Positions 200 through 64,000 of a stretch of 64,000 nt of DNA are shown in pieces. Origin of the DNA: Euglena gracilis. Lineage: Eukaryota. How positions within the stretch are numbered: position 1 is the first letter of the stretch; each line of letters begins with the position of its first letter. Location of the stretch: the NCBI GenBank assembly GCA_039621445.1, contig CP154954.1, positions 33,519,455 to 33,583,454 of the forward strand, read 5' to 3'. Position numbers and translations under genes: made by a program. The notes below the pieces were generated by a model that did no database searches, was not told where the DNA came from, and saw nothing but the letters and a program-made list of their open reading frames with translations.

Positions 200-8578
<8,379 letters not shown>

Positions 8579-32200: not shown

Positions 32201-35200
32201 GAAGGTGCTGGATGGTTGCAGTGGGGCGCGGCTGTGCTCGAAAGCCTGGTGTGGGGGGGGGTCTGACCCCCCACCCAGGAGGTGGGAAGGAGTGGGTCAA
32301 CCCCCCCCCACCACGCACTGCCCAAGGAAAACTTTGAATTAAACACCGGCACCCCTCGAAATACGGGAAGGCCTGCTGGGGGGGCAGCCCGCCCATAGAA
32401 TTTTGGGGATTCTTGTACAACCCTGGGCTGGGGGCAGGGTATTAAGTGAGAGAAGGGGGAAGGGGGGGTCCCGGACCCCCCTCCCCGGGCAGCGGGGTGG
32501 TCCAGCACCCCCGTCCCCCCCCCAAAGATAAAACCCCCCTGAGGACCTTGAAACCCCGCCCGAATATAAAACCCCCCCTCTGGCGCGACCGGAAAGTCGA
32601 CAAAATCTCTCCTGAAATTGCGATTTTTGGCAGATTTGGGTGCAATTTTTACCAAAAACGTTTGAAAATTGCTCCTTCGACCAAAAAGGGAAAATTTTTG
32701 ACCCCCCAGGTGGACATATTTGTGATTTTGGACCGAAAAAGTGACTACTGTGTCCCGCCAAAAAGTTGATTTATCCGATTGAATATAAACCCCCCCAAAT
32801 ATAAAACCCCCTGTGGGGTCTTGAAATTTCCGCCCAAATATAAAACCGGGGGCTTTATATTTGGGGGGGGGGTTAATTTTTTCTCCGGGGAAGAAAAAAA
32901 TTTGGTTGTATGGGGGGTCCCCAGACCCCACCCCCTCTAGGGAGGGGGTTGGCCCCCCCTCCATATAAACCCCCCCCCAAATAACACACCCCCCCGGTGT
33001 GTTATTTGGGCACCCGAACTGGGGCCCCAGGGGGGGGTGTGTTATTTGGGGGGGGGGTGTTATTTTTACATGGAAAACCAAAGGAAAACAGGGGGGGGGG
33101 TGTTATTTGGGCGCTCGAAATCGGTACCCGAGGGGGGGTGTGTTATTTGGGGGGGGGGGGGGTTATTTGGGGGGGGGTGTTATTTGGGGGGGGGGGGGGT
33201 TATTTGGGGGGGTGTGTTATTTGGGGGGGGGGTTTACAAAGCCAACGCTCACTTAATGCCCTGGCTGGGGGGGGGGAAGCTGGCTGCCAAGCTGGATCAG
33301 GCTAGCTGAAACTCCCCAAAAACCACAAATTCAGTTGTGAAACAATCCAGCAGCCATAGCTATGTTTGGGCACACCTCAAGGTAAACCCAGAGAATTTTG
33401 GGAATTTTTGGTGACATCTGGCTGCAGTGAGCTGGACCCAAATTGCGACTGGGAGTTGAGTGAGACTGGTTGGAGATCAGTGGTGGATTGGGGTTGAGTC
33501 CATTTTGGCCACCCTTGTCCAGAGTCTAAAAAGGTATTACCAAACGAGTTCTAGGAACTTTTGCAGTGAGGTTAAAGCGTAGACAAAAATTACAGTGCCA
33601 AAACATATGATAAAAGGCATTATGGTTAAAAAAAAACAATTTCATTCATTTTGGTGAAACGGTGTTTTTTTGAAAAATAGAATGGTAAAATTCAATATCC
33701 AACCAGTTTTAGCTCTGTTCTGCTATGTGTCAAGATGTTTTGTCCTTTCTTTTCATTGAAGAGTCAAATTAGGCAACTTTGCCTAAAAAAATGCCTGAGA
33801 AGTCAATATTTGTTGCCATGCATGCATTTTCTGTCGTTTTGGGGCAATTTTTAGACCATTTTCCAGTTACTGTTAATCACTTTGTCTGGGGCTTCGTGGA
33901 AGAGGGGTGTGAGAGCTGACACCGATCAAAAAGCACAATAAAAACAACCTGAATATTTGTCCACCCTGTAAACAGAAGAACTGGGCAAAGGAATCAACAA
34001 CAAAAAAACACACATTGAATCACCTGGTGAAGCAAGAAAGAATTATTATAAATCCTCTCTCAAAAAGCTTACCATCCTCAAATGTAAAGCCCCCCAGGGG
34101 GTTTAAGGGGTTTGGTTCGACGCCTAAATACCAGGCTTTTGCTTAAGGACCCCCCAGGGGGGGTACTGGCTAGCCAATCGGCTAGACACTGGAAAAAGTG
34201 GACTAGCTAGACCCCCCTCCCCCCGGGGGGTCCGGGCTCCCCTGGACTTGAAAATGAGGTTTTTAACAGGTTTTTGGCTGATTTTGCTCCAAAAATTCCC
34301 AAAAATGGCCAAAAACGGGCATTTTTGGCCATTTTTGGGGGTCCCAAAAAAATTTTTGGCGCTTCGCGCCGGTCACTGGAAAAAAATTTTCCACTAGCTA
34401 GCCCTGCTAGCAGACCCCCCGGGGGGGGGGGGTCTGCTAGAAAACCCACTAGCCAAATTTGGACTAGCTGCAGTCCAGCCCCCCCAGGGGGGGTACTGCA
34501 ATCCCTTCAAAAGCCTGCTAAATACCAGGTTTTGTGTAGAGCTCTTTACTTGCCTAATGGTGGCATGGAGCAGCAGATGCTTGGGAGACATGGTTGCCCG
34601 GCGGCCCGGCGGCCTGGCGCAGCGTTCAGTTGCAGGGGAATCAAAATAACATTACAAATGGCTTTTTAAAGAATTGGCCAGATATATATTTTGAAGGTTT
34701 CCAATTTTGTAACCCAAAAAAAGATCAAAACGGGGCAAGGTGCGATCCCCACCCCCTGCATATAGGCCGCCTGGACCAGCTAGGCGTCTGGCCACAAACA
34801 TATGCCATTTTGGGGTCAAAAAATCGAACATTTCAAAATATCTTAAAATGGTGGAGACCCAAAGAAATAACTGGGGCCTTCCATCACCCTGTACAGGCTC
34901 CAGGACCAAAATATTCAATGCAAAAATGCAAAAAAGCGTAGAAAAAAGTGCAAAGCAATGCAAAAAATTCAATTTGCATGTAAATTCCTTCAGGAGCTCG
35001 GCGGGGTTGTACACTTTTCTGCTAGAGGACTTTTTTCCATCTCACTTTTCACCTCCTCGGGGGAAAATTTGTCACTTTGCAACAGCATTTTCCTATGCAA
35101 CACAGTGCATATTCTGGACAATTATTTGCGCTTTTCTAACCCATAAAAACATCAGCAAAACAATGTCTTGCAAATTTTTTCAAAAATGCCAAAAAAACAC

Positions 35201-42800: not shown

Positions 42801-45800
42801 GGGGCCCCTGAACACGTTTTCAGGCTGAAATCTGGGCTCAGCCACAATTTGTGTGTAGAAAAATGGACAAAAATTGGTAAAGGATGACTTCAAATGGGCA
42901 AAAAAATGTAGCCTCCACCAACAATGACGAAAGCGTGACGAAAACCGGGTCATGTTGTTAAACCAATTTTGAGCGGCAGCCAAATTTGGTGTGCCAGTTC
43001 CAAATTTTGGGTGGCAAATTCCGAATTCAGCATTTGACACTTGATGGGCAAATTCCGAATTTCCAGTGTTTAGATTATTCTAGGCTGCATCGAGGTCGAT
43101 GGCCTTCTTCCCTTACCTCACCCATACCTTATCTCCACAAAGCAATGAAAAACTGTTGGAAAACCAATGTTTTCGGGTCATTCTTTTGGTGGTCAGAATT
43201 TTTTGTGGCCCGTTAGGCAAAGGGGGGAGGGGAGTCGGGGGAGGGAGGAGTTTCGGCAAACGGCGCACCGAGTCTTTGGCGGGAAAAAATTGGACAACAA
43301 CCAAAACTGCCCCAAAATCGCCAGCATGAAACTACCCTCCCCCAACGGCACTTGTGGGCTCCGGCCGGGGGGTACAATTGCAATTGGGGGGGGGGGCTCG
43401 GCGGGGTTGCTCAATTACACGACCGAACAATTAATCGGGGCGAACGATTAATCGATTATTATTCGATTATTATTCGATTAATTAAGAAAAAGGCGCCCTC
43501 CCGGGCTTTGGGGCGACGGCAGTACAGTTGGGGTTTTTTGGGGACCCCCCCCTCCCCCCCCTGTACAGTTGGGATTTTTGGGACCCCCCCCCAGTGCCGA
43601 ACGGTCCGAGACATGTGAAAATTTTGACACCAAAAATGGCCTTTTTGGACCAAAAAAAGGCCCTAAAATTTTTTTCTGGCGCCTTCGGCGCCGGTTTTTG
43701 GCCAATTTTGGGGGGGGTTGGCAGTACAGTTGGGACCCCAGGACCCCCCCCCCTGTGTTGAGACAGTACAGCAAAAAGTGTCAAAAAATGCAAAAAAAAC
43801 TGACCTCGGGACCCCCCCTCCCCCCCCCCCCGCCAAAGCTCCTTTCTTAGGGCCTTTGGCCCACGGCTGCCCAGCCCCACAAACTGTGGTGCTGACCCGC
43901 CTTTGACCTTTGTAAACTCCTTTTTTTTCTGGCACGGGGTTTTCTTTTCAGGCGGGTCCCCGGCCACTCCAGTTCTCCGGGTTTTTTTGGATGGTCTTTT
44001 TTGTCAGAGCTTCTTTTTTTCAGAATGGAGCTGTTTATTTTTTGACAGAGCTTCTTTTTTTTTATAGAATGGAGCTGTTGGAAAAGCTTTGCTGATGTGA
44101 TAGAAATGTATGATGCAAACTGGGTCAGGGTTGGGGTTGGGGTTAGGGTTTGGGCCAGGGAGTGGGAAACGGTGGACTGGGGGGGGGGTCCTGGGTGGTC
44201 GGCCGACTAGTCGGCCGACCACCCAATTGGTCGGCCGACTAGGCCTGGTCGGCAGCTAGTCGGCGAGACAGGGGGGGGGGTCCTGGGTGGTCGGCCGACT
44301 AGTCGGCCGACCACCCACTCTAATGTAGTTACGGGCCAGTTTCGCCGACTTTTAAGCCCCCCCCCTGAGAAAAAATTTTGTCCAAATCACCCCAAAACCA
44401 GTCAAAACCCACCCAAATGGCTCCAGAACCCCCCAATCGGGGGTCAATATGCAAAAAAATTGGGGGAAAATGTCCATTTTGGGCCACTTTTGGCAAAAGA
44501 ACACCTCTATCCGTTGTATATAAGTCAATATAAGTCAAATTTTGCACAAAAGGACTTAGCCCTCCAAGTATATTGCCAACATAGAAGGGATTTTGTTATT
44601 TGAGGGGGGTGGGGTGGGGGGGGGGGGCGGAACTCCCGCCGCCTATGCCAAAGTGAGCCACAAAAACGACTTAACCCCGGAGTATGTTGCCAACATAGAA
44701 GGGATTTTGTTATTTGAGGGGGGGGGTGCGGGGGGCGGAGCCCCCCCCGCCTATGCCAAAGTGAGCCACAAAAACGACTTAGCCCCTGAGTATGTTGCCA
44801 ACATAGAAGGGATTTTGTTATTTGAGGGGGGGGGGTGCGGGGGGGGGCGGAGCCCCCCCCCGCCTATGCCAAAGTGAGCCACAAAAACGACTTAACCCCG
44901 GAGTATGTTGCCAACATAGAAGGGATTTTGTTATTTGAGGGGGGGGGGGGGGGTGCGGGGGGGGCGGAGCCCCCCCCCCCGCCTATGCCAAAGTGAGCCA
45001 CAAAAACGACTTCGCCCCGGAGTATGTTGCCAACATAGAAGGGATTTTGTTATTTGAGGGGGGGGGTGCGGGGGGGGCGGAGCCCCCCCCGCCTATGCCA
45101 AAGTGAGCCACAAAAACGACTTAGCCCCTGAGTATGTTGCCAACATAGAAGGGATTTTGTTATCTGGGCTCGGGTGGGGGTGGAGGGGGGAGTTTTCAGC
45201 CTGTCCTGATGCAGAATGCTTGCATTTCTAAAGGATTTTCATGTAATCCCTGTTTCGTCATTGGTTTTTTACCCCTCCGGACCCCATCAAGGGCCCACCG
45301 ACCCCCCACCGACCAAAAATTTCCATCTGAGGGTGTTCCTGTTGGTGTAAGGCACTTATATTGGCCCCATCCGGACCATTTCCGGGTGGTTTGGACCCGC
45401 CACAGACCATTTTTATGCCCACCGACTAGCCACCGACTAGTTTGCATACAATTTTCTTCATAAAAAGTCGGCGAGACTGGCCCGTAACTACATTAGAGTG
45501 GGTGGTCGGCCGACTAGTCGGCCGACCACCCAGGACCCCCCCCCCCAGTCTACCGCCTAGGACCGGGCCAGGGTTCGGATTAGGGTTTGGTACAGGGTTA
45601 GGGTTTCGGGTTAGGGTTGGGGTTAGGGTTCAGGTTACGTTTAAGGTTTAGGGTTTGGTTTAGGGTTAGGGTTCGGGTTACGTTCAAGGTTAGGGTTAGG
45701 TTTAGGGTTTCGGGTTAGGGTTGGGGTTGGGCTCCGGGTTAGACGACCAAGGGCGAAGGCGCCATCCGACAATCGGTGTCTGATTGCGGATGCTCACAAA

Positions 45801-48800: not shown

Positions 48801-49992
48801 TACTGGCTACCACTCTTTTTACAAAACACAAATATTTTGCAAAATGCATCTGAATTTCGCAAAATCCACCATTGCCAACCTCAATTGGACGAAAAATGTC
48901 GCAACTGTCTCGGGGGTAGGCAGTACAGTTGTGATTTTCTGGGGACCCCCCCCCCTGTACAGCTTCCAACCCCCCCCCTCGGACCCCCCCTCCCCCCCCT
49001 GTGCCTTGTCTCCGATGCCTAATTTGGTGTCAAAATACCAATTTTAAGTTGGGGGATTCCTAATTTGGAGCCTAAAAAGGATTTCTCCCCCAAAAATCAT
49101 TTTCGGTGATTCCTATTTTTAGCCACCGAAAATGTGGTGTTTCCCCGTGCCCCCCCCCCCCCCCCGGTGACCCGAACCACTCCCGAAAAATTTTTCTCAA
49201 AAATGGCGGTTTCGCAAGGAAAAAGGTCAAATTTTTGCTTTTCAAAAAAACATGTTTTTTTTGGCGCTTTTTTAAAAAAAAGTTTTTTTTTGTTGTTGTT
49301 TTTTTGTAAAAAAAAAAAAAAAAAAAAAACCGTCAATCCTGCCCCCCCCCCCAGTTCCTAGCATTCAGGCAATCTATTCAGCCTTCAACCCCTACCTCGC
49401 CGTCCCAAATGACACACAATCCATGGGAGAGGATTCCATTCGGGGGGGGGGGGGGCACTATTCGGAACGTTGGTCGAAAACCGAGGGGGGGGCTTTATTG
49501 GGGGGGGGTAGGGCGCCTACAAAAATTTTTTGTGGGGGTGGAGAACGTCTGTTTTTGCCCAAAGAAAATGCCCGGACACCCTCGCCCCCCCCCCAAAGGC
49601 ATACCTCCAAACCGTCGGAACCCGAAACGGCCACTCCAGGGGGCCGGACACTTTGGGGGGTGAAATTTTGGCCTTCAGGGAGGTGAACCAAAATTTGACA
49701 GAAAACTTTGTCCACTTTGCGGGGGGGTGAGGGTCTCACAATTACAAGTAACTTTATCTTCATCAAAGTAAACAAACATTCTTAACCTTTGGCATACCCC
49801 AAGGCCAGAGAAGGCATTGAAGACGATTGCCTTGTGTCCTCCTTCCACGAAGAAGAAGGAATTTGCAAGGCAAGCTGCAACGCCAATTCCTGCTACAGCC
49901 TTCGCAATGGCACCACCTCCGGCAGGAGGCTTCTTGGAGAAGGACTCGGTGGCCCACTTCTGCAAATCTTTCAACTTCTTCTGAGGGTCCAT
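23234..49992 (-). CDS. PHB2: Prohibitin-2 (SPFH/band-7), 291 aa. Exons: 49992-49798, 38865-38740, 36983-36884, 32102-31972, 31322-31192, 30677-30609, 23357-23234
   Basis: The spliced protein reads MDPQKK...[49 protein letters not shown]...[18 protein letters not shown]...[30 protein letters not shown]...[59 protein letters not shown]...[17 protein letters not shown]...[12 protein letters not shown]...*. The N-terminal extension and C-terminus fit PHB2 better than PHB1. Introns 1, 3, 4 and 6 are GT-AG. Confidence 0.93.
24181..24493. repeat. Long inverted repeat: ~115-bp near-perfect arms with an ~85-bp spacer
   Basis: CAGAAGCCCCCTGAGCTTATGGGAGTCCC...TTGCGCCGAAGCGCAA is mirrored at 24380-24493. 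Confidence 0.92.
25158..26149. mobile_element. Tc1/mariner (pogo-like) non-autonomous element nested in the larger element; TA TSD; HTH-like ORF remnant at 25815-26060
   Basis: TA|CAGTGCGGCTAAAAATTAC.GAAGACA.AAATT...AATTTTTGTCTTCCGTAATTTTTAGCCACACTG|TA. The peptide [14 protein letters not shown]...[11 protein letters not shown] resembles pogo N-terminal DNA-binding helices (inference). Confidence 0.7.
27799..28213 (+). mobile_element. MITE-like dispersed repeat, copy 1
   Basis: The ends AACCCCCCCAAATA...TATTTGGGGGGGTT are inverted repeats, and an inverted homolog lies at 32520-32875. Confidence 0.7.
28734..28814. repeat. 10-bp minisatellite (GGATCCGGTG) x8
   Basis: Directly visible; the last two units are GGGTCCGGTG. 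Confidence 0.95.
30678..31191 (-). other. Nonconventional intron (PHB2 intron 5)
   Basis: AA|AGGCAGGGT...ACCCTGCATCC|A. CAG at +4..+6 pairs with CTG at -8..-6; restores EKRSKIVLAEGE. Confidence 0.9.
32520..32875 (-). mobile_element. MITE-like dispersed repeat, copy 2 (inverted relative to copy 1)
   Basis: The reverse complement shares long blocks with 27800-28170, e.g. GTCACTTTTTCGGTCCAAAATCACAAATATGTCCACC. Confidence 0.75.
32968..33233. repeat. G-tract/GTTATTTG tandem repeats with one inverted terminal copy
   Basis: About 9 copies of GTTATTT(G)n; the inverted copy CCCCCCAAATAACAC is at ~32972. Confidence 0.85.
34132..34517. mobile_element. hAT-type MITE with a perfect 8-bp TSD
   Basis: CTAAATAC|CAGGCTTTTG...CAAAAGCCTG|CTAAATAC, with internal GCTAG motifs. 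An 8-bp TSD and CAGG ends are typical of hAT elements. Confidence 0.88.
36984..38739 (-). other. Nonconventional intron (PHB2 intron 2)
   Basis: GTC|ACAAAAGGTGCT...AGCATCTTTGACCT|GAT. A 9-bp stem in the +4/-6 register with A+5/T-7 and Y|R borders; the conserved protein fixes the junction. Confidence 0.9.
39712..39815. repeat. (TA)n and (CA)n microsatellites
   Basis: Directly visible. Confidence 0.95.
41920..42740. mobile_element. TIR element with subterminal ~30-bp tandem repeats (ACGTTTTCCATTAGGGCATCTGTGGCA)
   Basis: GCCAAATGCCTGCCCTGA..TGGTCATGA versus TCATGACCA..TCAGGGCAGGCATTTGGC. Repeat clusters at ~41975-42065 and ~42555-42630. Confidence 0.6.
42739..42852. repeat. Near-perfect 114-bp palindrome (45-bp perfect arms)
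   Basis: ACAAATTGTGGCTGAGCCCAGATTTCAGCCTGAAAACGTGTTCAG and its exact reverse complement, with an inner GGGCCCCC-GAA-GGGGGCCC hairpin. Confidence 0.95.
44544..45163. repeat. ~110-120-bp minisatellite, about 5.5 units
   Basis: Six copies of GCCAACATAGAAGGGATTTTGTTAT; units differ mainly in G/C run length. Confidence 0.95.
45570..45741 (+). repeat. Degenerate interstitial telomere-like (TTAGGG)n tract; shorter tracts at 44122-44152 (+) and 41787-41819 (-)
   Basis: Runs such as GGTTAGGGTTAGGGTTCGGGTTA. Confidence 0.8.
45741..46344. repeat. ~150-bp minisatellite, about 4 units
   Basis: AGACGACCAAGGGCG...GTGTCTGATTGCG.ATGC.CACAAAACGGTCCGGCA...AGGGATTTTGT is repeated. Confidence 0.92.
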
Positions 49993-50011
49993 TGTGCGGA
50001 TGGGTGGAGAA

Positions 50012-50027
50012 CTAAAAGAGAAGGAAT
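50012..50027 (-). promoter_or_regulatory. Probable SL trans-splice acceptor of PHB2
   Basis: The minus strand reads ttccttctcttttAG|ttctccacccatccgcacaATG. Confidence 0.65.
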
Positions 50028-50414
50028 CACTTGGGGTTTTAAACCAAGGGGTTTAGGAAATCGAAGACATTAGGTTTAAAGCTTTCTGGATAAAGCCCTC
50101 AAATTTTCACCATGTTTGGAGGTAGTTACTGTGAGAGGAAGAAAGCCTCACAAAAGGAGCAAAATTTCACCCGGATGGTAACTCGGATGGTGACACAAAG
50201 AGTTAGGGGAAAATAAGTCGTGGTTGGATAGGGCATTCCAAGGGCTTATTTTGCTTCATTGTCGAGATATTATGGAAAAATCAACCCAACCACAACCCCA
50301 AACCGGGCAGTTTTGGGCCACAAAGCGCGCTGGAAAACATGAGAGAAGGAAGAGATGGAAAGAAATCAGAACAGTGAGCACCCTGCAAAGGAATCAATGC
50401 CATGAAGTCCTCTT

Positions 50415-51985
50415 TTGGGCGCATTCCGTGAGGCGCTCTGGCTTCTCTCCCCCTTTTTTTCTCTTCCCACGTTCCCTTCTCTCCGCACGTTTGCTTCCGC
50501 GAACGGAATTCAAAAGCATAACGCGCTCTTTCTGCGGGACTCCGGGACTCACAGTGTGCAAGTGATCTCCGACTCCATCCGGAGTGCTGCCTGTGACATT
50601 GTGGGGGCACCCCTGTCTGCCTTGCATTGGAAACAAATCACCTTGCCGTGCAATAAGACAGGGTGGGGCATCACAGACCCCCAGTTGGAAAGACCAGCTG
50701 CCCGTTTGGCTGCTTGCGTGGGTTTTTCCCAACGAGCGCCAGGCTTCAATATCCCTCCGCCCTGGCGCTTGCTCCCGCTACCAGATACCATCCCCGTCGC
50801 CAAACTGGCTCGTGACACTTTGGGCCCACACAGCGAACCATTGGCTTCCTGGATCGCCAACCCTTCTTCCTTGGCCTGTTCCACCCCAGATCACTCCACT
50901 CAATCGTGGTGGGCCGAACGTTTCCACGCCGTGCGCGTGGCAACTTTGGAGGAGGGTGCACCTCTTCGGGACATTGCCAGGCTTCGTTGCCAATCCTCTG
51001 CCTTCCTTCAAAATTGGATGACCGTCTTACCATCCAGGTCGGTGAATACCGTCCTGGCTCCGGACGAATACAGACTGCTTCTACGCTTCTGGACTGGCTT
51101 ACCCCTGATCCCAACAACGGACATGCTCCTGTGCCCCCTGTGTGCTGAGGCAGTCGATCCATTTGGCGATCACCTCCTGGCTTGCAGAAGGAATGGCATA
51201 ACAGAAAGGCACAACTGTGTTCGTGACGCCATTTTTGACCTGTGCCAGCGCTCCGGCATCACTCTTCGCAAAGAACAGGGATGCGAGGGTGGCACCCGTG
51301 ACGCTGATCTCCTTCTCCTGGGGTGGAACAAAGGGAAGCATCTCGCTGTGGATGTCACCATTGAACACCCGCTGGCCCCATCACGGTGGCCTCTGAACTT
51401 GACCCGAGTTCAGCGCACTTTACCAGACGCTGAAATGCACAAGAGAACACAAGCTGAAGAACGGTGCGCCCGCCACCAGTGGGAGTACATCGGGGCTGCA
51501 TTTAACCCCTGGGGTTGCACAGGACCGGCAGCCTCCAAACTGCTACGCGATGTCTTACGCCTCGCGACCAATTCATATTCTGGAACAGCCAAACAACGAA
51601 AACTTCAGGAATTGACCGAAAACCTGGCCATCACCCTGGCCCGTGCAGTTGCACGGCAGCTGCGGTTGGCCGAAAGAGCCACAGATCGTATGATCCTGAA
51701 CTCATAAGGTGAAAATGCTCCTCGTTGCACCAGCTTTCCGGAGCCACAAAGCCGGAGAACACCACCGCGCATGCACACTTCACACCTCTCCACCCATCAT
51801 CACTCTCTGCTTGGGCTTTGCCCTTGCTCTCACCGCTCGACCCACGCTCCTTCGTTGTATATAGCCTCGCACCCTCGAACACTCAAATCCAGTAGGCTGT
51901 GCCACTGGTCGGTGGATTCGGTTCGCCCCACCACCGTTTCCAAAAGCCGCAAAGAGGAAACCGCCAGACAAGAAAACGATATGGA
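50415..51985 (+). mobile_element. CRE-clade non-LTR retrotransposon, family A, 5'-truncated (ORF to 51707: thumb, CCHC zinc knuckle, restriction-like endonuclease)
   Basis: Motifs ITLPCNKTGWGITDP, CPLCAEAVDPFGDHLLAC, RHNCVRD, RDADLLL, AVDVTI, AEMHK are co-linear with the family B C-terminus but strongly diverged. Confidence 0.88.
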
Positions 51986-52007
51986 TCTGAGTGTCTATTT
52001 TTTTTCG
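51986..52007 (+). other. Genomic copy of the Euglena spliced-leader exon (nt 5-26)
   Basis: TCTGAGTGTCTATTTTTTTTCG matches 22/22 nt of the E. gracilis SL as I recall it (ACTTTCTGAGTGTCTATTTTTTTTCG). It is followed by element sequence, not by the SL RNA intron. Confidence 0.9.
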
Positions 52008-54042
52008 TCTGCATAAATAAATAAAAAAAGAAGTTTTTTCGTCTGCATAACCACCATGGCTGCAAAGGGGCCGGATGGCCCTCCAGAAGACCCCAAGACT
52101 CAAGACAATACACCCCTTGTCAATCAAGCTGCTACCACAACCAACCCTTCAAGTACACCTACTTCTGCAGTGGACACTGGACAGTTGGAGCTGCTGGCCA
52201 AGATGTTGTTGCCGCTGTTGGTGCCTGTGCTAACCACTGCTGTGGCACAACGACTCACTGCTGACCGCCCTGTACATAGTGACAGAGAAAGTCAAGACAG
52301 CAGCTCACAGAGAAGGAAGAGGACGTGGCAAGAGAGGGAAGAGCATGAAGAGTACCTACAGAGAAGGTTTGGAAGAGATTACAAGCCCCCATGGCAGAGA
52401 GGTCGACCCAGTTATCATATATCTCAACAGAGTTCTCCTCAGCCCCAGCTCCATCAGCAAGTGAGTCTGGGGCCCCACTGTACAGCAAGCCCAGCAGTGG
52501 GCATTCAACAGTCAGGCCCATCAGTGGGCATTCCAATGAACAGCCCATTCCAATGCCCACCAGTGGGTAGAAGTCAAGTATGTCCATCTGTCACATCAAT
52601 CATACAAATGTACATTCCATCACAGACCAACCTTTGGGGTGAACCCCAGCAATCTCAGCAACCACTGCAATCAAACTGGAGCAGAGAAGATGACCAGAGG
52701 AAGAATTGGACCAGAGAAGAAGAGCAGAGAAGGAGAGAGGCTGAACTCTTCAGAAGCCTCAGAGCCTTTCTCAGCACAGGCCAGAGTACTCAAGTCCCCC
52801 CCCTCCCAACACCATTACACAACCCTGGCCTGCCAGCACCCTTAATCCCACATGTGGTACTGGCATCACCATCAGCCTTTGCTTTTCTGCCTGCAGCTTA
52901 CCCTTTTGTCTCACAAAATCCCCCCCAAAGAGGGGACAACTCAACACAATATGTTCACCTAGTAAAACAAATGGATCAAGAATTTCATCCCAAGGCAACT
53001 CCAAATCAAAATGAGTTGGCAAAACAACCCCCCCAACCCAAAAGAGGAGGATCATCAACCCCAGCCCAATGCAACTCCAAAAAATCTCAGCACCCCCCCC
53101 AATATCAGCCCCCCCTGCAAGAGGGGGGGGGCCAGGCCCACCGTTTCGCATTTTTAAAATTCCAACAAAACCCACCACGTTTGATGGCACACAGTGGGCC
53201 AAACTGGGCACAGTGATCCTGCAGGAGGAACCCAGCCCCTTTCAATGGCAAGACCCCCCCCAGGCAACAGATTTACCAGCCTCCCCACCCAACACCCCCC
53301 TTGAAGGGGTCCCAGTTTGGGAAACACCAGAGTTTCGGTCCCTCAGGGAAGAATTTTTTTGGAGAAGGCGCATGAGACAGCAAGCAGGAGGCATTTTATT
53401 TCACGAGATGGTCGCCAGAAAACTGGCCAACATTCAGGAAAAGTGGGTCGACATCGGCAGAACAGTGGACATTCGGCAGTCACAAAAAATGGTGCACACA
53501 GACATGAAACTCACGTTGCCACTGGCAGCGCCAAACGTTGTGCAATCGCCCCCCCCACCAAAAAAGTACTTATCCTGGAACGGATCAGAATCGCCCAGAT
53601 TCTTCATCAATACCGACCAGAGGAACAACGTGAGGAAGGAGTGGACATGTCGCACATAGAAAAAGTACGCCGAGCTATCGCACAAAAAATCAAACAAAAA
53701 GTGCCTGCAGCAGAAGCAGTCTGCCCCCCGAGGACAAAGAAGAGGCTGACACCCTCCCGAGAACCAACCCTGCCCATTGCCTGGCGATACTGCCCAAGAA
53801 TTTGGCAGATGGAAGACATGCCCAGACCGTTACAGTTTGCGTGTGAGGTTGGATTGGCTGATCGTCTTTCCCCGTCTGTATGGACCGCCAGCGATCTTGA
53901 TGACTCAAATGACTCCCTGTCGGACTATTACTCTTGTGCTGCCACAAAAAAATTCCGCATGGCAGAAACAGTCGGCAACATACACCTCTGCTCTGCAAGC
54001 CCACACGGGGGGAAGAATCCGGAAGACGCATATCTGAAGACG

Positions 54043-54096
54043 GGGCGAGGTGATTCCCTGACAACAATGGGTGATGTGGAAACCAATCCAGGCCCG
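54043..54096 (+). other. 2A/StopGo-like peptide 1: GRGDSLTTMGDVETNPGP
   Basis: Matches the D(V/I)ExNPGP consensus and resembles T2A (EGRGSLLTCGDVEENPGP). Confidence 0.85.
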
Positions 54097-54451
54097 CTGA
54101 CGGCAGTTAATGGCCCCTGTGGTGAAGTCATGGATCTATTGGACCAACTTGTTGCCATGAACATGACTGATTTCTTTCGGATCAAGGCCGAACTACCGTT
54201 GCGGAAAGGCCTCGATGGCTCCTCCCAATCACTTCTTCCCAAAGCTACATACTGACTGAAATGCACTTTGTGTGACATTGAAACCATCACTGCCTCGGCA
54301 GGTTGGTGCTTGCACCACAGGGAAACCTGCCCTGTTTTATTCAGCCACAGTATTTCCATCTATTGAGATAGCAAAAGTACACTCTGTAACAAGCCGAGGA
54401 TACACCGTAGAACAAACCCGGGAAAAGTTTTCAGCAGGACACCAGCCGACT

Positions 54452-54505
54452 GGAAGGGGGGAACGAATCACCACCCATGGTGACGTCCAAACACAACCAG
54501 GACCC
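54452..54505 (+). other. Variant 2A-like peptide 2: GRGERITTHGDVQTQPGP (also 61784-61837 in B2)
   Basis: Same GRG-x6-GDV-xxx-PGP scaffold with E>Q and N>Q substitutions. Confidence 0.65.
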
Positions 54506-55142
54506 ATCTACTTCCGTCTGGCCACCATGGAAAGACCGACAATCCCTGTCTCCAGGGGACTTCAAGAAAACTTCGTTCGGCACAGATTGCTGGCGAGCCT
54601 TCAAGAGGTGGATGCAGAACTTCAAACGTTCCGAGACGCCTTCCCTTCCGATGTCCTGGTTGAGGACACTACCGTCTATGAGCTCACCGAATGTTGGGAA
54701 GTTTTGAGAGGAGTTCTGTTTGTGCTCATAGGGCTATGGCCACATCGACCACCACGTCACGACTCCCCATCGAGTGTGCATGCCATTATGTGGTTGCTGA
54801 CTTGTTTATGGTCCGAAGTATGCAACATCGGCGAGGCCTTTCACCTCTACCTGCCCCCTATTCACCTAATGACACTACCAACGTTCTCCGGCCGAGAGGC
54901 ACTTTCCCCAGAGTACCCCCAACGGAGCCCTCCTCGTCCGACCTCTCCCCATTGAATGTGCACACCGTTGATATCCTGGACATCATGGCCTTCTTACGTC
55001 CGACAAGATCAGCAGTTTTTTTGTTGACCGTCATGTCCGGAGGGCACGACGGACAGCACAAAGACAACCAAACTACCAACGAGGTGACCAACACGGTGAC
55101 ATAAGCCCTAACGACGCTGTCATAGCCGAGACGCCCACACAC

Positions 55143-55187
55143 CAAGATGTCACACTTTGTGGTGACGTTCAGCTCGAGCCGGGACCT
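55143..55187 (+). other. Variant 2A-like peptide 3: QDVTLCGDVQLEPGP (also ending at 62519 in B2); not shown in the ORF track
   Basis: Found by manual translation; in B1 it is in frame with peptide 4 with no intervening stop. Confidence 0.6.
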
Positions 55188-55379
55188 ATTCACCGGATAA
55201 CCCCACGTGAAGGACCCCTATCCCTGCGACCTAGCACCCGGCCCCATTGCCGACGACCGACTTGCCCTCTGGCCCCAGGGCCTTCTAAGTTGTCAAATGT
55301 GGCCCCAGGGCACGCCAACCATGTACGGCAACTGATTGACCAGGAAAAAACGCGGTATGGGTACAGTCCCCCCTGGTGT

Positions 55380-55433
55380 GGCAGGGGCAAAAGCCTTGCC
55401 AGTTGTGGCGACATTGAAAGCAACCCAGGTCCC
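55380..55433 (+). other. 2A/StopGo-like peptide 4: GRGKSLASCGDIESNPGP (also 62710-62763 in B2)
   Basis: Canonical GDIESNPGP at the start of the frame that runs into the RT. Confidence 0.88.
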
Positions 55434-58400
55434 ACAAAAACCCGCCCTCCCCAGCAGGAGGACGTTGAAATGGCCTCAGCCGCACAGACCTCTGCTGTGC
55501 CGCCGACGGAGCGACCACTCCTTGGATCTTGGTTTCCAATGCACTCGACGCCGCTGTTCTCGCCTACTTTGTCCCAGGCTATAATGCCGTTTCCCAGTTT
55601 GAACGGGGGCCCCGGGTGTGCGCCGCAGGGCCAGGGGATGATTGAGAATTTTGTGCCGTCCTCACCACAAGGGCAAGAGCAAGAGTGCCTAAATGGTCGA
55701 AGGCCGCAGCCCCCCGTGGCCCCAGCACCAGCGCAATCCTCGACGAACGCTGATACGCTGCAAGTCACTCCCTTCTCGCAACCTTGCCCACCACTGCAGC
55801 CATCTTGGGAAGAAATTTCCCAAGACAGTCGAGGCACGTTGGTCCATATCCCACGGTGAGCGTTGCGAAACGTTGGGCTCGCCTTTTGCAGCACCCTCAG
55901 TCGCTTTGTGTCCAAGCCAGGATGGGAGACCCTACACGCACTTTGGTGCTTCCCAAAAGCTGTGCTTGCTCCATTGAAGCGCAGCGGGAAAAGCCATTGG
56001 GCTGCAGTTGGACGGAAAATTACTGAGAGAGCCAATGCCTACCTCAACCGGTCCACAGAAGATTCGTGGGATGAGACTCGCCAAATTCGCGATGCGCAAA
56101 ACCCAAAGAAGAGAACACGAAGTCAGACAAAAAATTTCGATGCAGAAAGCCAAGAAAGATTGTGCAACCGTGTTCAAAGCCTTGTCAGCCATGGGGCGGT
56201 CAGTAAAGCCTGCCGCATGCTGACTTCTGATGGAATCCAAGATGCAGATGACCCGCTAATCTTGGAACGGTTGGCTGCCTTGCACCCTCCTGAACCCCAA
56301 CCTGGAAGGCAAAATCTGCCTCCGGACTTCCCTCGCCTCGAATTCGATCTCAGTGAAGATGCAACCAGGGAGCGCCTAATTGAAATACGGAAAGCAGTCA
56401 TGTCATTCCCGAAGGAGTCCTCACCGGGACCGTTTGGACTTCGTCCAGATCGTCTCAAAGACATGCTCTCTGATCCCCTGGGGACACAATCTGAACAACT
56501 CCTCACAATTTTGGACCAATTCATCCGAACATGTTTGACAAACGGAATTGACAACTCAGTGGCATGGATTTTCGCTGGTGCCCGTTTGACTCCTCTTCGA
56601 AAACCCTGCAATCCAAGCGAAAACCTTGATGAGCTTGGCAATGCCAACCCCATTCCTGACCCAAAGAAGGATGGCGCGCGACCAATTGCAGCTGGGGAAT
56701 GCCTGCGCCGATTGGTGGGCAAATATTTGATGAGGCACCCCAAAATCAGGGACCGCCTTAAAGAACTGCAGCCACTACAATGCGGTGTAGGGGTCCAGGG
56801 GGCATGTGAACTCATTGCTATGGGACTGCAGCAAGAAGTAAATCACCTGCACAGGCAACAGGACAGCACCTAGGCTTTGTTACAGGTAGATTTCAGCAAT
56901 GCTTTTAATTGCGTAAAAAGAAAGACAGTCCTTGCTGAAGTGGCTAAACGCTGCCCGGAGGCGTACGTTTGGTTCGAGAGTTGCTACGTCGAACACAGCC
57001 CGCTCTTTTGTGGGTCATCACACCTTCGGAGTGCCTCTGGCGTACAACAAGGGGACCCTTGTGGCCCAGCCGGATTCGCCTTGGCGCTGCAATCTCTCGT
57101 CGAGTCCTTGCAAGACGTGGTGCCACTCCAATTGTGGTATTTGGATGATGGACACATCCTGGGAACCCTCCCACAATTACATGCAGCAATTACAGAGATT
57201 CAACGACAGGGGACGCTACTAGGCATACACCTCAACGCAAAAAAATGCCGCCTGTGGGGCCCTGCAGCAACAGAAGCCAATCGTGCTGAAATGCCGCAAA
57301 ACAGCCCACTTCGTGCAGTCCCAATCGTGAACTACTCCCCCGATTCTGGTATACGGGCCCTGGGATCCCGGTATGCTATCCACAAAGTGGAGGTTTTGCG
57401 GGGGAAGTGTGGGCTGAACGTGCAACAAGTGTGCAAAAGCTTGCCGGGCCCTTTTGAACCTGCCGCAAGCCCATATTCAGTTCTGCCTCTTACGAACCTG
57501 CCTAGATGCATGCAAAGTTAATGACCTCCTGCGTGCAACAGAACTGGGGCAGGCAAATGACGCATGTGCTTTGTTGACCAAAGAAATCAGGAACACAATG
57601 AGCAACATTGTTGGATCCCCCATCGATGACAACCAATGGGCTCAGGCCACCCTACCTGTGCGTCATGGCGGACTCGGAATTCGGGACCCATCACGGGAAC
57701 GTCTCCCAGCACGGATATCCGGCATTGTGATGTTTGTCAGCAATGGCAGACGCACCCTGGGCCTGGCAGACCGAGGAGTACCGAAAGACACTGCGGAGTG
57801 CCTGTCTTCTGCCAACTCCATCCTCGAAGGAACTCCCCCAACGCACACATGGGCCGCGGATGTATCACTCTTGAACGAAGCCCAAAGCCCTCACATTCAA
57901 CAGAAGTGGTGGGGTGAATGCTTTGCGAAACAACGGCAAAAGGTATTATCCTCCAACCTTCACGGTCAAGACGCCGTCCGGTTCGCAAGCCAACAGCGGC
58001 CCCACGCAATGGCCTGGGCTTCTGTCACACCATCCTCTGGACTGAAAACATTGGTTGCTTCTGCCGAATTCAAAGGATTTCTAAAGTGGTCACTGGGAGC
58101 AGCAGTTTGCCCACCAACGGGATCAACGTGCCCACGCTGCACCAAGCCAATGGACAACCTGGGTAATCACCTTGTATGCTGCAGCTCAAATGGCATCACG
58201 CGGCGACATGGTGCAATCCAGGACTTTGTGTTCCAACTGGCACATGATGCTGGGTTTACAGCAAAAAAAGAACAAGGAGGTCTAGAGAGAACACGCCCGG
58301 GCGATGTGCTCATCAGCAGACTTGACGCCAATGGTCCTGGAGCAGTGGATATCACAGTGAGACACACAGCAGCACCGTACAGACCGTTGCGTGACGCAGC

Positions 58401-58734
58401 TGAACTAACTGAATGGTATGAACGCCAAGAGAAAGAAAAACATTCAAAATATGACGCCACCTGTGGGAGGATGGGATGGACCTGCATTCCATTTGTTGTT
58501 GACTGCTATGGCAGCCTAGGCCAAGAAGCGCTATCCTTAATGTCAACACTGATGAAGCTTCTCCTCGGTCAACAAGATGCATGGTCAAAACGCAAAACTG
58601 AGGCCGACACATGGCAACTTCTATCAATCACTGTTGCGCGAGAGATCGCGCGACAAGTAATCTGGGGACGGTATGCAGGCAACGACACAGATCCAGACGT
58701 AACCAACACCATACACCAGCCGTATTGTCTGTAA
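55431..58734 (+). pseudogene. RT-CCHC-RLE coding region of B1, with premature stops at 55857-55859 and 56871-56873 and a frameshift near 57360-57450
   Basis: The TGA at 55857 is GGA in B2. The TAG before ALLQVDFSNAF is plausibly a mutated TGG. Confidence 0.85.
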
Positions 58735-59372
58735 AGAAGACCACTACGACCCCTAGACCCAGAACAAACAATTGTCCTTAAACCATTCATAACTTGTCAA
58801 AAAAGTAAACAACGGTACCCAACCATCGGCAACCTGTGTCCCACATTGACAAGAGAAGTGGCTGTCAATTGGCTTGAGGAACAGTGGTGGAGCCATCTGG
58901 AACGGTGGATCCCACCACCCATTGCCCATATGAGACGGAGTAAGCAATTTGACCACAGGGCCGAAGGCTCCATGACACACCAACCGTACGCATAACCAAC
59001 CACAAGACTAAAAACACGTCCAAACCCTTACCGCACTGAAAACAGAGCCTTCCCTACGCCAACTCCCCTAAACCCAAACCTAAACTTGTCGCTGCCACAA
59101 CCTCAACACTCAACAGTCCCCGTGGCCGTTCTATTGAACCTTCCCTGCCGCTGTACACTTTCCTCTCACACTCGCTATCTCCCCTCCGTACTGTGCCCCT
59201 CACCGCCCTTCTATTTCACCTTCGACTCTCGCCCCTCGCACCCTGAGAACTTGGTATGTGCATTACTCTCACCCGCACAGGACTTCGGCTCGGAGTGATC
59301 CTCCTAGGCCGCTGAAGACAGGTCGGAGAGTTCCAATTTCCAAAAAAAAATTCTCATAAGACACTCATAAGG

Positions 59373-59397
59373 CTTTCTGAATGTCTATTTTTTTTCG
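59373..59397 (+). other. Genomic copy of the spliced-leader exon (nt 2-26, one mismatch)
   Basis: CTTTCTGAATGTCTATTTTTTTTCG followed by TCTGCATAATCACCATGG. Confidence 0.9.
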
Positions 59398-62300
59398 TCT
59401 GCATAATCACCATGGCTGCAAAGTGGCCGGATGGGCCTCTAGAAGACCCCAAGGCTCAAGACAATACACCCCTTGTCAACCAAGCTGCTACCACAACCAA
59501 CCCTTCAAGTACACCTACTGTTGTAGTGGACACTGGACAGTTGGAGCTGCTGGCCAAGATGTTGTTACCGCTGTTGGTGCCTGTGCTAACCACTGCTGTG
59601 GCACAACGACTCATTGCTGACCGCCCTGTACATAGTGACAGAGAAAGTCAACACAGCAGCTCACAGAGAAAGAAGAGGACATGGCAAGAGAGGGAAGAGG
59701 ATGAAGAGTACCTACAGAGAAGGTTTGGAAGAGATTACAAGCCCCCATGGCAGAGAGGTCGACCCAGTTATCATATATCTCAACAGAGTTCTCCACAGCC
59801 CCAGCTCCATCAGCAAGTGAGTCTGGGGCCCCACTGTACAGCAAGCCCATCAGTGGGCATTCCACAGTCAAGCCCATCAGTGGGCATTCCAGTGAACAAC
59901 CCATTCCAATGCCCACCAGTGGGCAGAAATCAAGTATGTCCATCTGTCACATCAATCATACAAATGTACAATCCATCACAGACCAACCTTTGGGGTGAAC
60001 CCCAGCAATCTCAGCAACCACTGCAATCAAACTGGAGCAGAGAAGATGACCAGAGGAAGAATTGGATCAGAGAAGAGGAGCAGAGAAGGAGAGAGGCTGA
60101 ACTCTTCAGAAGCCTCAGAGCCTTTTTCAGCACAGGCCAGAGTTCAGAAGTACCCCCCAACACCATTACACAACCCTAGCCTGCCAGCACCCTTAATCCC
60201 AGATGTGGTACTGGCATCACAATCAGCCTTCCAATGTGCTCTTCTGCCTGCAGCTTTCCCTTTGTCTTTTGTCTCACAAAGTCCCCCCCAAAGAGGGGAC
60301 AACTCAACACAATACCTTCACCCAGTAAACAAGTGGATCAAGAATTTCATCCCAAGGCAACTCCGTATCAAAGGGAGTCTGCAAAACAACCCCCCCCCAC
60401 CCAAAAGAGGAGGATCATCAACCCCAGCCAAATGCAACCCCAAAAGATCTCAGCACCAGCCCCCCAATATCAGCCCCCCTGCAAGAGGGGGGGGGGGCTA
60501 GGCCCACCATTTCGCATTTTTAAAATTCCAACAAAACCCACCATGTTTGATGGCACACAGTGGGCAAAACTGGGCACAGTGATCCTGCAGGAGGAACCCA
60601 GCCCCTTTCAATGGCAAGACCCCCCCCAGGCAACAGATTTACCAGCCTCCCCACCCAACACCCCCCTTGAAGGGGTCCCAGTTTGGGAAACACCAGAGTT
60701 TCGGTCCTTCAGGGAAGAATTTTTTTGGAGAAGGCGCATGAGACAGCAAGCAGGAGGCATTTTATTTCACGAGATGGTCGCCAGAAAACTGGCCAACATT
60801 CAGGAAAAGTGGGTCGACATTGGCAGAACAGTGGACATTCGGCAGTCACAAAAATTGGTGCACACAGACATGAAACTCACGTTGCCACTGGCAGCGCCAA
60901 ACGTTGTGCAATCGCCCCCCCCCCCCCACCAAAAAAGAACCTCATCCTGGAACGGATCAGAATCGCCCAGATTCTTCATCAACACCGACCAGACGAACAA
61001 CGTGAAGAGGGAGTGGACATGTTGCACATAGAAAAAGTACGCCGAGCTATCGCACAAAAAATCAAACAAAAAGTGCCTGCAGCAGAAGCAGTCCGCCCCC
61101 CGAGGCCAAAGAAGAGGCTGACACCCTCCCGAGAGCCAACCCTGCCCATTGCCTGGCGATACTGCCCAAGAATTTGGCAGATGGATGACATGCCCAGACC
61201 GTTACAGTTTGCGTGTGAGGTGGGATTGGCTGATCGTCTTTCCCCGTCTGTATGGACCGCCAGCGATCTTGATGACTCAAATGACTCCCTGTCGGACTAT
61301 TACTCTTGTGCTGCCACAAAAAAATTCCACATGGCAGAAACAGTCGGCAACATACACCTCTGCTCTGCAGGCCCACACAGGGGGAAGAAGCCGGAAGACG
61401 CATTTTCATCCAGGTCCATCAAATGCCGCCGACGGCATTTGATGGACCCTGTGGTGAAGTCATGGATCTATTGGACCAACTTGTTGCCATGAACATGACT
61501 GATTTCTTTCGGATCAAGGCCGAACTACCGTTGCGGAAAGGCCCCGATGGCTCCTCCCAATCACTTCTTCCCAAAGCTACATACTGACTGAAATGCACTT
61601 TGTGTGACATTGAAACCATCACTGCCTCGGCAGGTTGGTGCTTGCACCACAGGGAAACCTGCCCTGTTTTTTTCAGCCACAGTATTTCCATCTACTGAGA
61701 TAGCAAAAGTACACTCTGTAACAAGCCGAGGATACACCGTAGAACAAACCCGGGAAAAGTTTTCAGAAGGACACCAGCCGACAGGTAGGGGGGAACGAAT
61801 CACCACCCATGGTGACGTCCAAACACAACCAGGACCCATCTACTTCCGTCTGGCCACCATGGAAAGACCGACAATCCCTGTCTCCAGGGGACTTCAAGAA
61901 AACTTCGTTCGGCACAGACTGCTGGCGAGCCTTCAAGAGGTGGATGCAGAACTTCAAACGTTCCGAGACGCCTTCCCTTCCGATGTCCTGGTTGAGGACA
62001 CTACCGTCTATGAGCTCACCGAATGTTGGGAAGTTTTGAGAGGAGTTCTGTTTGTGCTCATAGGGCTATGGCCACATCGACCACCACGTCACGACTCCCC
62101 ATCGAGTGTGCATGCCATTATGCGGTTGCTGACTTGTTTATGGTCCGAAGTATGCAACATCGGCGAGGCCTTTCATTTCTACCTGCCCCCCAATCACCTA
62201 ATGACACTACCCAACGTTCTCCGGCCGAGAGCACTTTCCCCAGAGTACCTCCAACGGAGCCCTCCTCGTCCGACCTCTCCCCATTGAATGTACACACCGT

Positions 62301-64000
62301 TGATATCCTGGACATCATGGCCTTGTTACGTCCGACAAGATCAGCAGTTTTTTTGTTGACCGTCACGTCCGGAGGGCACGACGGACAGCACAAAGACAAC
62401 CAAACTGCCAACGCGGTGACCAACAAGGTGACATAAGCCCTAACCACGCTGTCAAAACCGAGAGGCCCACACACCAAGATGTCACACTTTGTGGTGACGT
62501 TCAGCTTGAGCCAGGACCTATTCACCGGATAACCCCACGTGAAGGACCCCTATCCCTGCGACCTAGCACCCGGCCCCATTGCGGACGACCAACTTGCACT
62601 ATGGCCTCAGGGCCTTCTAAGTTGTCAAATGTGGCCCCAGGGCACGCCAACCACGTACGGCAACCGATTAACCAGGAAAACGCGGTATGGGTACAGTCCC
62701 CCCTGGTGTGGCAGGGGCAAAAGCCTTGCCAGTTGTGGCGACATTGAAAGCAACCCAGGTCCCACAGAAACCCGCCCTCCCCAGCAGGAGGACGTTGAAA
62801 TGGCCTCAGCCGCACAGACCTCTGCTGTGGCTGACGGAGCTACCGCTCCTTGGATCTTGGTTTCCAATGCACTCGACGCCGCTGTTCTCGCCTACTTTGT
62901 CCCAAGCTATAATGCCGTTTCCCAGTTTGAACGGGGGCCCCGGGGCACCCGCAGCTGAACAAATCATGGTCATTGACGAACTAGAGTCCCGGGTGCGCTC
63001 AGCGATTTCCGAAATTCACGGGTGTGCGCCGCAGGGCCAGGGGATGATTGAGAATTTTGTGCCGTCCTCACCACAAGGGCAAGAGCAACAGTGCCAAAAT
63101 GGTCGAAGGCCGCAGCACCCCGTGGCTGTAGCACCAGCGCAATCCTCGACGAACGCTGATACGCTGCAAGTCACTCCCTTCTCGCAACCTTGCCCACCAC
63201 TGCAGCCATCTTGGGAAGAAATTTCCCAAGACACGCGGGGCACGTTGGTCCATATCCCACGGGGAGCGTTGCGAAACGTTGGGCTCGCCTTTTGCAGCAC
63301 CCTCAGTCGCTTTGTATCAAAACCAGGATGGGAAACCCTACACACACTTTGGTGCTTCCCAAAAGCTGTGCTTGCTCCACTGAAGCGGAGCGGGAAAAGC
63401 CATTGGGCTGCAGTTGGACAGAAAATTACTGAGAGAGCCAATGCCTACCTCAACCGGTTCACAGAAGATTCGTGGGATGAGACTCGCCAAATTCGCGATG
63501 CACAAAACCCAAAGAAGAGAACACGAAGTCAGACAAAAAATTTCGATGCAGAAAGCCAAGAAAGATTGTGCAACCGTGTTCAAAGCCTTGTCAGCCATGG
63601 GGCGGTCAGTAAAGCCTGCCGCATGCCAACTTCTGATGGAATCCAAGATGCAGATGACCCGCTAATCTTGGAACGGTTGGCTGCCTTGCACCCTCCTGAA
63701 CCCCAACCTGGAAGGCAAAATCTGCCTCCGGACTTCCCTCGCCTCGAATTCGATCTCAGTGAAGATGCAACCAGGGAGCGCCTAATTGAAATACGGAAAG
63801 CAGTCATGTCTTTCCCGAAGGAGTCCTCACCAGGACCGTCTGGACTTCGTCCAGATCATCTTAAAGACGTACTCTCTGATCCCCTGGGGACACAATCAGA
63901 ACAACTCCTCACAATTTTGGACCAATTCGTCCGAACATGTTTGACAAACGGAATTCACAACTCTGCGGCATGGGTTTTCGCTGGTGCCCGTTTGACTCCT
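59373..64000 (+). mobile_element. CRE-clade non-LTR retrotransposon, family B copy 2 (B2), runs off the right edge
   Basis: Co-linear and highly similar to B1 from the SL through the start of the RT, with private indels. Confidence 0.93.

Follow-up and report, generated by a model that had tools for sequence, protein, structure and literature searches.

Spliced-leader relics at the 5' ends of tandemly arranged R2-like retrotransposon copies in Euglena gracilis

How does a retrotransposon come to carry, at its 5' end and away from any spliced leader (SL) RNA gene, a copy of the SL exon of its host? The question is raised by a 64 kb stretch of Euglena gracilis DNA (assembly GCA_039621445.1, contig CP154954.1, positions 33,519,455 to 33,583,454 of the forward strand), which we refer to as the window and number from 1 to 64000. 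Its last part holds a head-to-tail array of elements from two families without long terminal repeats (non-LTR), A and B, in the order truncated A, spacer, SL-B1, spacer, SL-B2, so that the 5'-most member is truncated and the inner copy B1 is full length. A preliminary description of the window had proposed that the element RNA is SL trans-spliced and then copied, and that each SL deposited in this way serves as the landing site of the next element. Our analysis supports the first of these proposals and turns to other explanations for the second. Papers are cited by PMC number.

The leader and its exact junction

The 26-nt SL of Euglena gracilis is printed in PMC6242988 and appears as a primer sequence in PMC5654406. 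The relic in front of B1 (51986-52007, plus strand) corresponds to SL positions 5-26 with 0 mismatches, the complete 22-mer being contained in the printed leader, and the relic in front of B2 (59373-59397, plus strand) corresponds to positions 2-26 with one substitution, G10>A at 59381. A search of the window with the 22-mer accordingly found it again at 59376-59397 with 1 mismatch. Given the match to the printed sequence, this is a euglenid leader and not a trypanosomatid one, and the host is a euglenid. In the whole window, GTCTATTTTTTTTCG occurs only at 51993-52007 and 59383-59397, both on the plus strand, against a chance expectation of 0.03 matches; two or more matches were seen in 0 of 100 shuffles. 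The shorter TTTTTCGTCTGCATAA occurs three times (52001, 59391 and 52035), the last of these in a duplicated junction of B1.

In both copies the last SL base is joined directly to the same 9-mer, TCTGCATAA. The end of the SL exon could be fixed independently by scanning metagenome contigs with an SL 19-mer, which gave 22 matches at 21 loci, a mixture of SL RNA genes, transcripts and bacterial sequences matched by chance. GTAT follows the SL in 9 of the 22, mostly with a conserved ...ACACTTTCT context upstream that identifies SL RNA genes, and this continuation places the exon end at ...TTTTTTTTCG. None of the 22 metagenome matches had TCTGCATAA after the SL, and a scan of viral contigs with the 17-nt junction returned 62 loci, all chance matches and none with an SL in front. 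The SL and the element therefore meet exactly at the trans-splice junction in both B copies, as had been described, and so does the position of the start codon agree with the description: the ATG lies 14 nt past the SL end in B2 (59412) and 14 nt past the second copy of the junction in B1 (52056).

The absence of an SL RNA intron or a 5S gene nearby was likewise borne out. Neither relic is followed by the SL RNA intron (GTAT...), an Rfam scan of the 64 kb window found neither 5S nor any other Rfam family, and a tRNA scan of the same 64 kb found no tRNA. As the exon end is joined directly to the element and no 5S or other Rfam match is present, these loci are not SL genes. No second SL piece lies behind the element 3' ends in the window. 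Upstream of the two relics the sequences are unrelated, being the tail of A in the case of B1 and the tail of B in the case of B2, and the homologous part of B1 and B2 starts within the first 5 SL nucleotides. The preliminary description had each SL sitting right behind the 3' end of another element; an element tail does lie upstream of both, but neither SL abuts it, as A-rich spacers of 47 and 60 nt intervene.

In order to define the boundaries of the elements, we used Logan contigs of four public runs mapped on 50000-64000. Runs X1 and X12 are probably DNA and carry two organism labels, X15 was taken to be RNA by guess and X20 is a metatranscriptome; runs with a small share (X16-X19) were left out. 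The family A fragment (50540-51938, plus strand) is truncated at its 5' end and retains the C-terminal linker, the CCHC and restriction-like endonuclease (RLE) part, a stop codon at 51705-51707 and the 3' untranslated region (UTR). Its 5' limit is the place where X12 contigs switch from unique to repeated sequence (approximately 50540-50569), and its 3' boundary (51937-51940) is marked by 86 loose contig ends and several joints. No further piece of a related element was found in positions 1-50400 of the window. Spacer 1 (51939-51985, plus strand, 47 nt, 22/47 A) separates the A 3' end from the SL of B1; at other loci the same place is taken by 0-17 different letters among the in-between strings listed.

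The 5' UTR of B1 (52008-52055, plus strand) begins with TCTGCATAA. Behind it lie an A-rich insert of 17 nt (52017-52033), a second copy of TCTGCATAA preceded by the final 8 SL nucleotides (52034-52050), and CCACC. The insert, of which 13 of 17 bases are A, immediately precedes the duplicated 17-nt junction piece, and the duplication suggests that the reverse transcriptase (RT) slipped or switched close to the 5' end of the template. Re-splicing at an internal AG of the SL was considered as its source and rejected, the order of the pieces not fitting. Two partial SLs in tandem, resembling the B1 duplication, were also seen in one public contig.

The polyprotein region of B1 (52056-58734, plus strand) is decayed: stop codons interrupt the frame at 55857-55859 and 56871-56873, the frame changes near 57365 and 57439, and it shifts at other points in the 5' half. 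At 57435, where B1 changes frame, other B copies have one extra base in eight X1 and four X12 contigs, so that this break is private to the copy or its subfamily. The 3' UTR (58735-59312, plus strand) ends at the 3' boundary of the family and is followed by spacer 2 (59313-59372, plus strand, 60 nt, 25/60 A), which separates it from the SL of B2. When searched against the window, the two spacers gave only A-run matches. B2 (59398-64000, plus strand) has a 14-nt 5' UTR and a similarly decayed polyprotein, which is cut by the end of the window inside the RT region. B1 (52034-56594 and on) and B2 (59390-64000) form direct repeats with 94.9-96.9% identity, approximately 7.37 kb apart.

Origin of the tagged copies and of their order

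Both families are highly repeated, 10,429 X1 contigs having been matched to 50000-64000 (the summed contig depths along B were not taken as copy numbers), which allowed us to ask what follows an element 3' end at other loci. The joints considered here are the best-supported 15 of 48 and the in-between strings 12 of 47, and all counts are lower bounds. The A 3' end (51937-51940) leads to the SL start at 59373 in at least 7 X1 and at least 2 X12 contigs. Among the joints listed, the SL at 51986 is likewise reached from this end of A (51914, 51938 or 51940), across fillers of 13-17 nt in three versions, and one version restores SL positions 1-4. At least 3 contigs lead from the B 3' end (59312) to an SL: two of these joints go to 51986, with 30 and 37 letters in between, and one, with 0 letters, goes to 59375. 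The remaining joints listed connect the A 3' end to 5'-truncated B at 52236, 56733 (in both X1 and X12), 58129, 58643 and 59282, and to truncated A at 51672; all six types have the same orientation and no SL on the downstream partner. Altogether, 13 of the 19 distinct joints listed that leave an A or B 3' end enter an SL start (positions 1-5), and the other 6 enter truncated B or A.

The linkage of 3' end, spacer, SL and B is thus recurrent and has arisen independently at different loci. The joints without SL, in the same orientation, show that the SL is not needed for head-to-tail linkage. Moreover, in 86 X1 contigs the A 3' end continues into sequence absent from the stretch: most A copies are without a following SL, and A 3' ends are mostly joined to unrelated DNA. 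Runs X15 and X20 contain B-like contigs at 90-99% identity, in which starts, strand and expression are not readable and DNA is possibly present, and we draw no conclusion on transcription from them or from bins that lack contig cover.

The exact junction at the exon end, the lack of an intron and the unrelated sequences upstream are most simply read as the mark of a cDNA of trans-spliced B mRNA, and the start of B1/B2 homology within the SL agrees with the origin that the preliminary description had put forward. The SL-tagged B copies are very probably cDNAs of mature, SL trans-spliced B mRNA, whose 5' end was set by the SL and which were copied nearly to the cap. We infer the following order of events. 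A B mRNA without a 5' end of its own making would be trans-spliced directly before TCTGCATAA, 14 nt ahead of the start codon, and the SL would both set and cap its 5' end. The RT would then copy the mature mRNA nearly to the cap in target-primed reverse transcription, giving full-length daughter copies that start at SL positions 1-5 and run to position 26; the missing first 1-4 bases may reflect halting of the RT near the modified cap. On reaching the 5' end of the B template, or after falling off earlier, the RT could switch to the A-rich tail at the 3' end of a further A or B RNA and go on copying, so that several elements would be deposited in a single event.

A jump of this kind has a precedent: having reached the 5' end of one RNA, the R2 RT moves on to the 3' end of a second, as described in vitro as well as in vivo (PMC3414825). 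Jumping onto an A-rich tail would account for the common orientation, the variable A-rich spacers, the full-length inner members, the truncated downstream partners and the truncated 5'-most member, and template jumping is tentatively our preferred source of the head-to-tail order. Serial insertion beside element tails, a close alternative, accounts for the same facts and is possible, if less probable. In either case the SL would not be the target, and either fits the joints better than insertion directed at the SL. Taken as a whole, a trans-spliced template combined with arrays made by the retrotransposition machinery is on balance probable and is the best explanation that we can offer. A jump of the RT onto a whole SL RNA was also considered as the source of the leader and was rejected, as it would have carried along part of the intron, of which none was seen.

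Several points weigh against this explanation. No RNA 5' end was seen in the runs, all of which are Logan contigs and cannot show where RNAs start. The SL-tagged copies read ...TTTTTTTTCG|TCTGCATAA, and the junction therefore has CG instead of the canonical AG acceptor; by canonical rules no second trans-splicing could take place at the same position. A source copy with AG and without SL was not found, leaving the remaking of the same mRNA unexplained. Possible ways round the missing AG are a small number of SL-less master copies, a relic SL that is itself functional (as an initiator, or through a U8 tract and a non-canonical acceptor), or some other route. Furthermore, spacers of 30-60 nt exceed the three non-templated nucleotides at one R2 jump junction (PMC3414825), and under jumping they would have to come from the tail of the acceptor RNA. 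B2 is cut by the end of the window, which leaves the 3' end of the array and any target-site duplication out of view, so that a single event and serial insertions are not separable, and the joint counts, coming from the best-supported joints, do not amount to a census.

The missing AG would be resolved if the captured SL had become a heritable and functional part of the element, acting either as an initiator or internal promoter with its start at SL +1, or as a U8-CG acceptor at which read-through transcripts of the array are re-spliced. For dinoflagellates, relic SLs have been suggested to provide a non-canonical acceptor (PMC12014239), and high conservation of relic SLs has been described at the place where a promoter is expected (PMC5585692). 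Nevertheless, no result supports promoter or acceptor activity here, and the relics are incomplete at their 5' ends to different extents (starting at positions 5 and 2), which is better explained by an RT halting near a modified cap; we consider such a heritable module improbable. In a broader form of the idea, the relic would be a portable 5'-end module through which the downstream copies of an array are matured again, via U8 and the CG acceptor or via the initiator, and which may in addition be a preferred landing site. This we regard as doubtful; if true, SL-tagged copies would be self-sufficient and arrays could propagate themselves outside the SL gene locus.

The preliminary description had suggested a different role for the SL, in which the endonuclease of A or B recognises SL DNA, each tagged copy becomes a landing site and the next element inserts just upstream of the SL. 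The 13 of 19 listed joints that lead from an A or B 3' end to an SL start, with different spacers, are in line with this proposal, as is the targeting of SL exons by related RLE elements (PMC4640811). However, it accounts for the SL-bearing subset only: the partners reached by the other 6 joints are equally oriented, 5'-truncated copies of B or A that lack an SL, the 86 X1 contigs leave the A 3' end for other sequence, and in none of the joints listed does an element tail precede a genuine SL RNA gene. Self-seeding through the SL has no direct support and some evidence against it, and we judge it unlikely.

Two further explanations fare worse. As B1 and B2 are adjacent and 95-97% alike, they could have arisen by tandem duplication of, or unequal crossing-over at, one SL-B unit, or could be a chimera of the assembly; yet their relics begin at different SL positions behind unrelated sequence, and junctions of the same type with other spacers occur in two DNA runs with two organism labels, making a local event or artefact very improbable. 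Site-specific insertion of B at the exon-intron border of SL RNA genes, the SL being left-over target, has a precedent in SL-gene-specific RLE elements (PMC4640811) but is already contradicted here and extremely improbable. Neither element is followed by an SL intron, the window contains no 5S or SL gene, the sequences before the SLs vary from locus to locus and are element tails unlike the ...ACACTTTCT context of real SL genes, and the SL gene sequence that such an insertion would leave behind the element is not seen.

Coding capacity of family B and the surrounding sequence

The RT region of B1 (55860-57518, plus strand) matches the Pfam family RVT_1 with an E value of 9e-11. We built a profile from B, A and six long relatives and searched it against PDB, where the best matches were R2 proteins, with E values of 1.8e-20 (9nl3), 3.1e-20 (9dou) and up to 3.6e-17, and L1 ORF2p reached 3.4e-9. 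In a single-sequence search of PDB the RLE piece had no match and the RT piece only one of E ~0.4. A CCHC zinc knuckle and an RLE core follow at 58129-58350 (plus strand), with the motif string C-x2-C-x9-H-x3-C-x7-RHG-x19-E-x7-RPGD-x14-D, shared by B1 and 4 of the 8 long relatives scanned with a regular expression. In a second, collinear stretch of the profile the CCHC, RH, E, PD and D motifs align to the R2 endonuclease. An AlphaFold (AF2) model of 57922-58731, with a predicted local distance difference test score (pLDDT) of 89.8 from a 25-row alignment, had R2 proteins at all of ranks 1-7 in a Foldseek search of PDB (E 9e-6 to 1e-3, TMq 0.51-0.61), followed by Prp8 and Holliday-junction resolvases. 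No Pfam family for an N-terminal apurinic/apyrimidinic-type (APE) endonuclease was detected in nine pieces of the window or in three intact relatives, a negative result that is weakened by the decay of B1.

From these profile, motif and modelled-fold matches, family B is an RLE-type, R2-like non-LTR retrotransposon, in which a predicted RT is followed by CCHC and RLE motifs within a polyprotein that has putative 2A-like sites. That it is an autonomous element is the best explanation. Family A is, judging from its sequence, a 5'-truncated relative of B: it has ~30% amino acid identity to the RLE region of B (tblastn), and the A1 profile matches an open reading frame (ORF) at 50406-51704. The CRE/SLACS pattern for the restriction-enzyme-like (REL) domain has been given as C[X1-3]C[X7-8]H[X3-4]C[X9-10]RHD/N.X19-33.E.X9-21.R/KPD.X12-14.D/E (PMC12857005). 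Compared with it, B1 has the same order and the catalytic residues, but four spacings or residues fall outside. ESM Atlas returned only unnamed RVT_1 clusters and was of no help in assigning the clade; other hits, too, were almost all unnamed, and no result puts A or B in the CRE clade.

Pfam found no family in the 5' half of B1. The 2A-like motifs of B1 lie within 54073-55433 (plus strand), at 54073 (DVETNPGP), 54482 (DVQTQPGP), 55164 (DVQLEPGP) and 55410 (DIESNPGP). Two are canonical, D[VI]E[TS]NPGP, and two (DVQTQPGP and DVQLEPGP) are degenerate, the degenerate pair being identical in B1 and B2; B2 has three such motifs, at 61814, 62496 and 62740. Three intact relatives of 1613-1849 amino acids (P0121, P0122 and P0124) have three canonical NPGP sites each. 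2A-like sites have been described for APE-type long interspersed nuclear elements (LINEs), and B carries them in an RLE-type element. In the same three relatives, 2A-like sites enclose a domain of the SLBP RNA-binding type (PF15247, E 2e-13 and 2.6e-20), and P0121 and P0122 in addition contain a segment resembling Dam-like adenine methyltransferases, with an NPPF motif, which remains under the Pfam cut-off (26.4 vs 28.1 bits). Neither an SLBP-type nor a methyltransferase domain was detected by Pfam in B1.

Contigs up to approximately 50540 are unique and of single-copy depth, so that the array abuts ordinary host DNA. An ORF on the minus strand (49675-50052, ATG at 49992-49990) points away from the array and matches no Pfam family; an initial guess that it is prohibitin-like was unsupported. 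Between this ORF and the array, many contigs of the RNA-type runs X15 (10 and 9) and X20 have loose ends on either side of a piece of ~35 nt (50248-50282), which is either present in many copies or strongly expressed. Upstream of the host ORF, a low-complexity tract (49270-49720) contains homopolymers of A (~25), C (13), G (15) and others, which may be homopolymer noise of the assembly. Elsewhere the window contains tandem-repeat blocks at 44545-45190 (period ~113 bp) and 3359-3572 (~45 bp), and an inverted pair, 27802-28170 and 32521-32869, which is 84% identical and ~4.4 kb apart.

Relation to known systems and significance

Like B, the CRE group (SLACS, CZAR and CRE1-CRE2) and NeSL-1 have an RT followed by CCHC and RLE motifs and are physically associated with the SL, and SLACS, CZAR and CRE share with B a euglenozoan host. 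SLACS, CZAR and CRE1/2 insert site-specifically into the exon of the SL RNA gene. All of these elements, NeSL-1 included, lie within SL RNA genes and are flanked by SL gene sequence at either end (PMC4640811), whereas B has a whole SL exon at its 5' end: the SL runs complete to its 3' end and the element then follows, with no flanking SL gene sequence. B differs from SLACS, CZAR and CRE also in the absence of the intron, in loci that are not SL gene arrays and in an RLE motif spacing that departs from the published CRE/SLACS pattern.

What is found at the 5' end of the B copies, a DNA copy of the SL exon that ends at the splice junction, is instead what is expected of an SL-tagged retrocopy, and the A-rich spacers after both 3' ends may be a trace of retroposition, the 3' end of the array lying beyond the window. 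In the relic-SL retrogenes of dinoflagellates a DNA-encoded 5' SL similarly marks the copy of a trans-spliced mRNA (PMC12014239, PMC5585692). Those are host genes mobilised in trans, often with stacked, truncated relic SLs left by repeated rounds of recycling, whereas in B it is the mRNA of the element itself that is tagged, with one near-complete SL per copy and the copies chained head to tail.

The joints within the array recall the 5' chimeras of R2 with snU12 and tRNA and the L1-U6 chimeras, which arise by RT template jumping and in which, with an R2-like enzyme, the 3' end of a second RNA is found on the 5' end of a full-length element with few extra nucleotides (PMC3414825). In the case of B, however, the partner in the window and in the joints listed is the RNA of another retrotransposon (A or B) and not a small cellular RNA, the spacers are A-rich and reach 60 nt, and the linkage is frequent. 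Tandem stacking of RLE elements at one kind of site is also known from MoTeR, FoTeR and Cnl1, which are CRE-related and telomeric (PMC12857005). Their arrays lie at chromosome ends with telomere repeats between the elements, in contrast to the heterogeneous A-rich spacers of the B array and its position beside unique DNA and a host ORF.

B therefore differs from the known SL-gene-specific RLE elements and from the relic-SL retrogenes in that its own mRNA is the tagged template, the SL stands at its 5' end and the copies are chained outside SL loci. Open-access papers and preprints gave no account of Euglena retrotransposon copies that carry an SL tag.

R2-like elements are without a promoter and borrow their 5' end, which R2 obtains through a ribozyme on a host co-transcript. 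Here, an R2-like relative appears to use SL trans-splicing for the same end, leaving a trace in every full-length copy. This raises the question of how copies without an AG at the junction remake the same mRNA. In a euglenid genome that is very rich in repeats, the SL is a built-in tag of full-length retrotransposition events, and the SL junctions are a natural record of how the RT behaves at the 5' end of its template.

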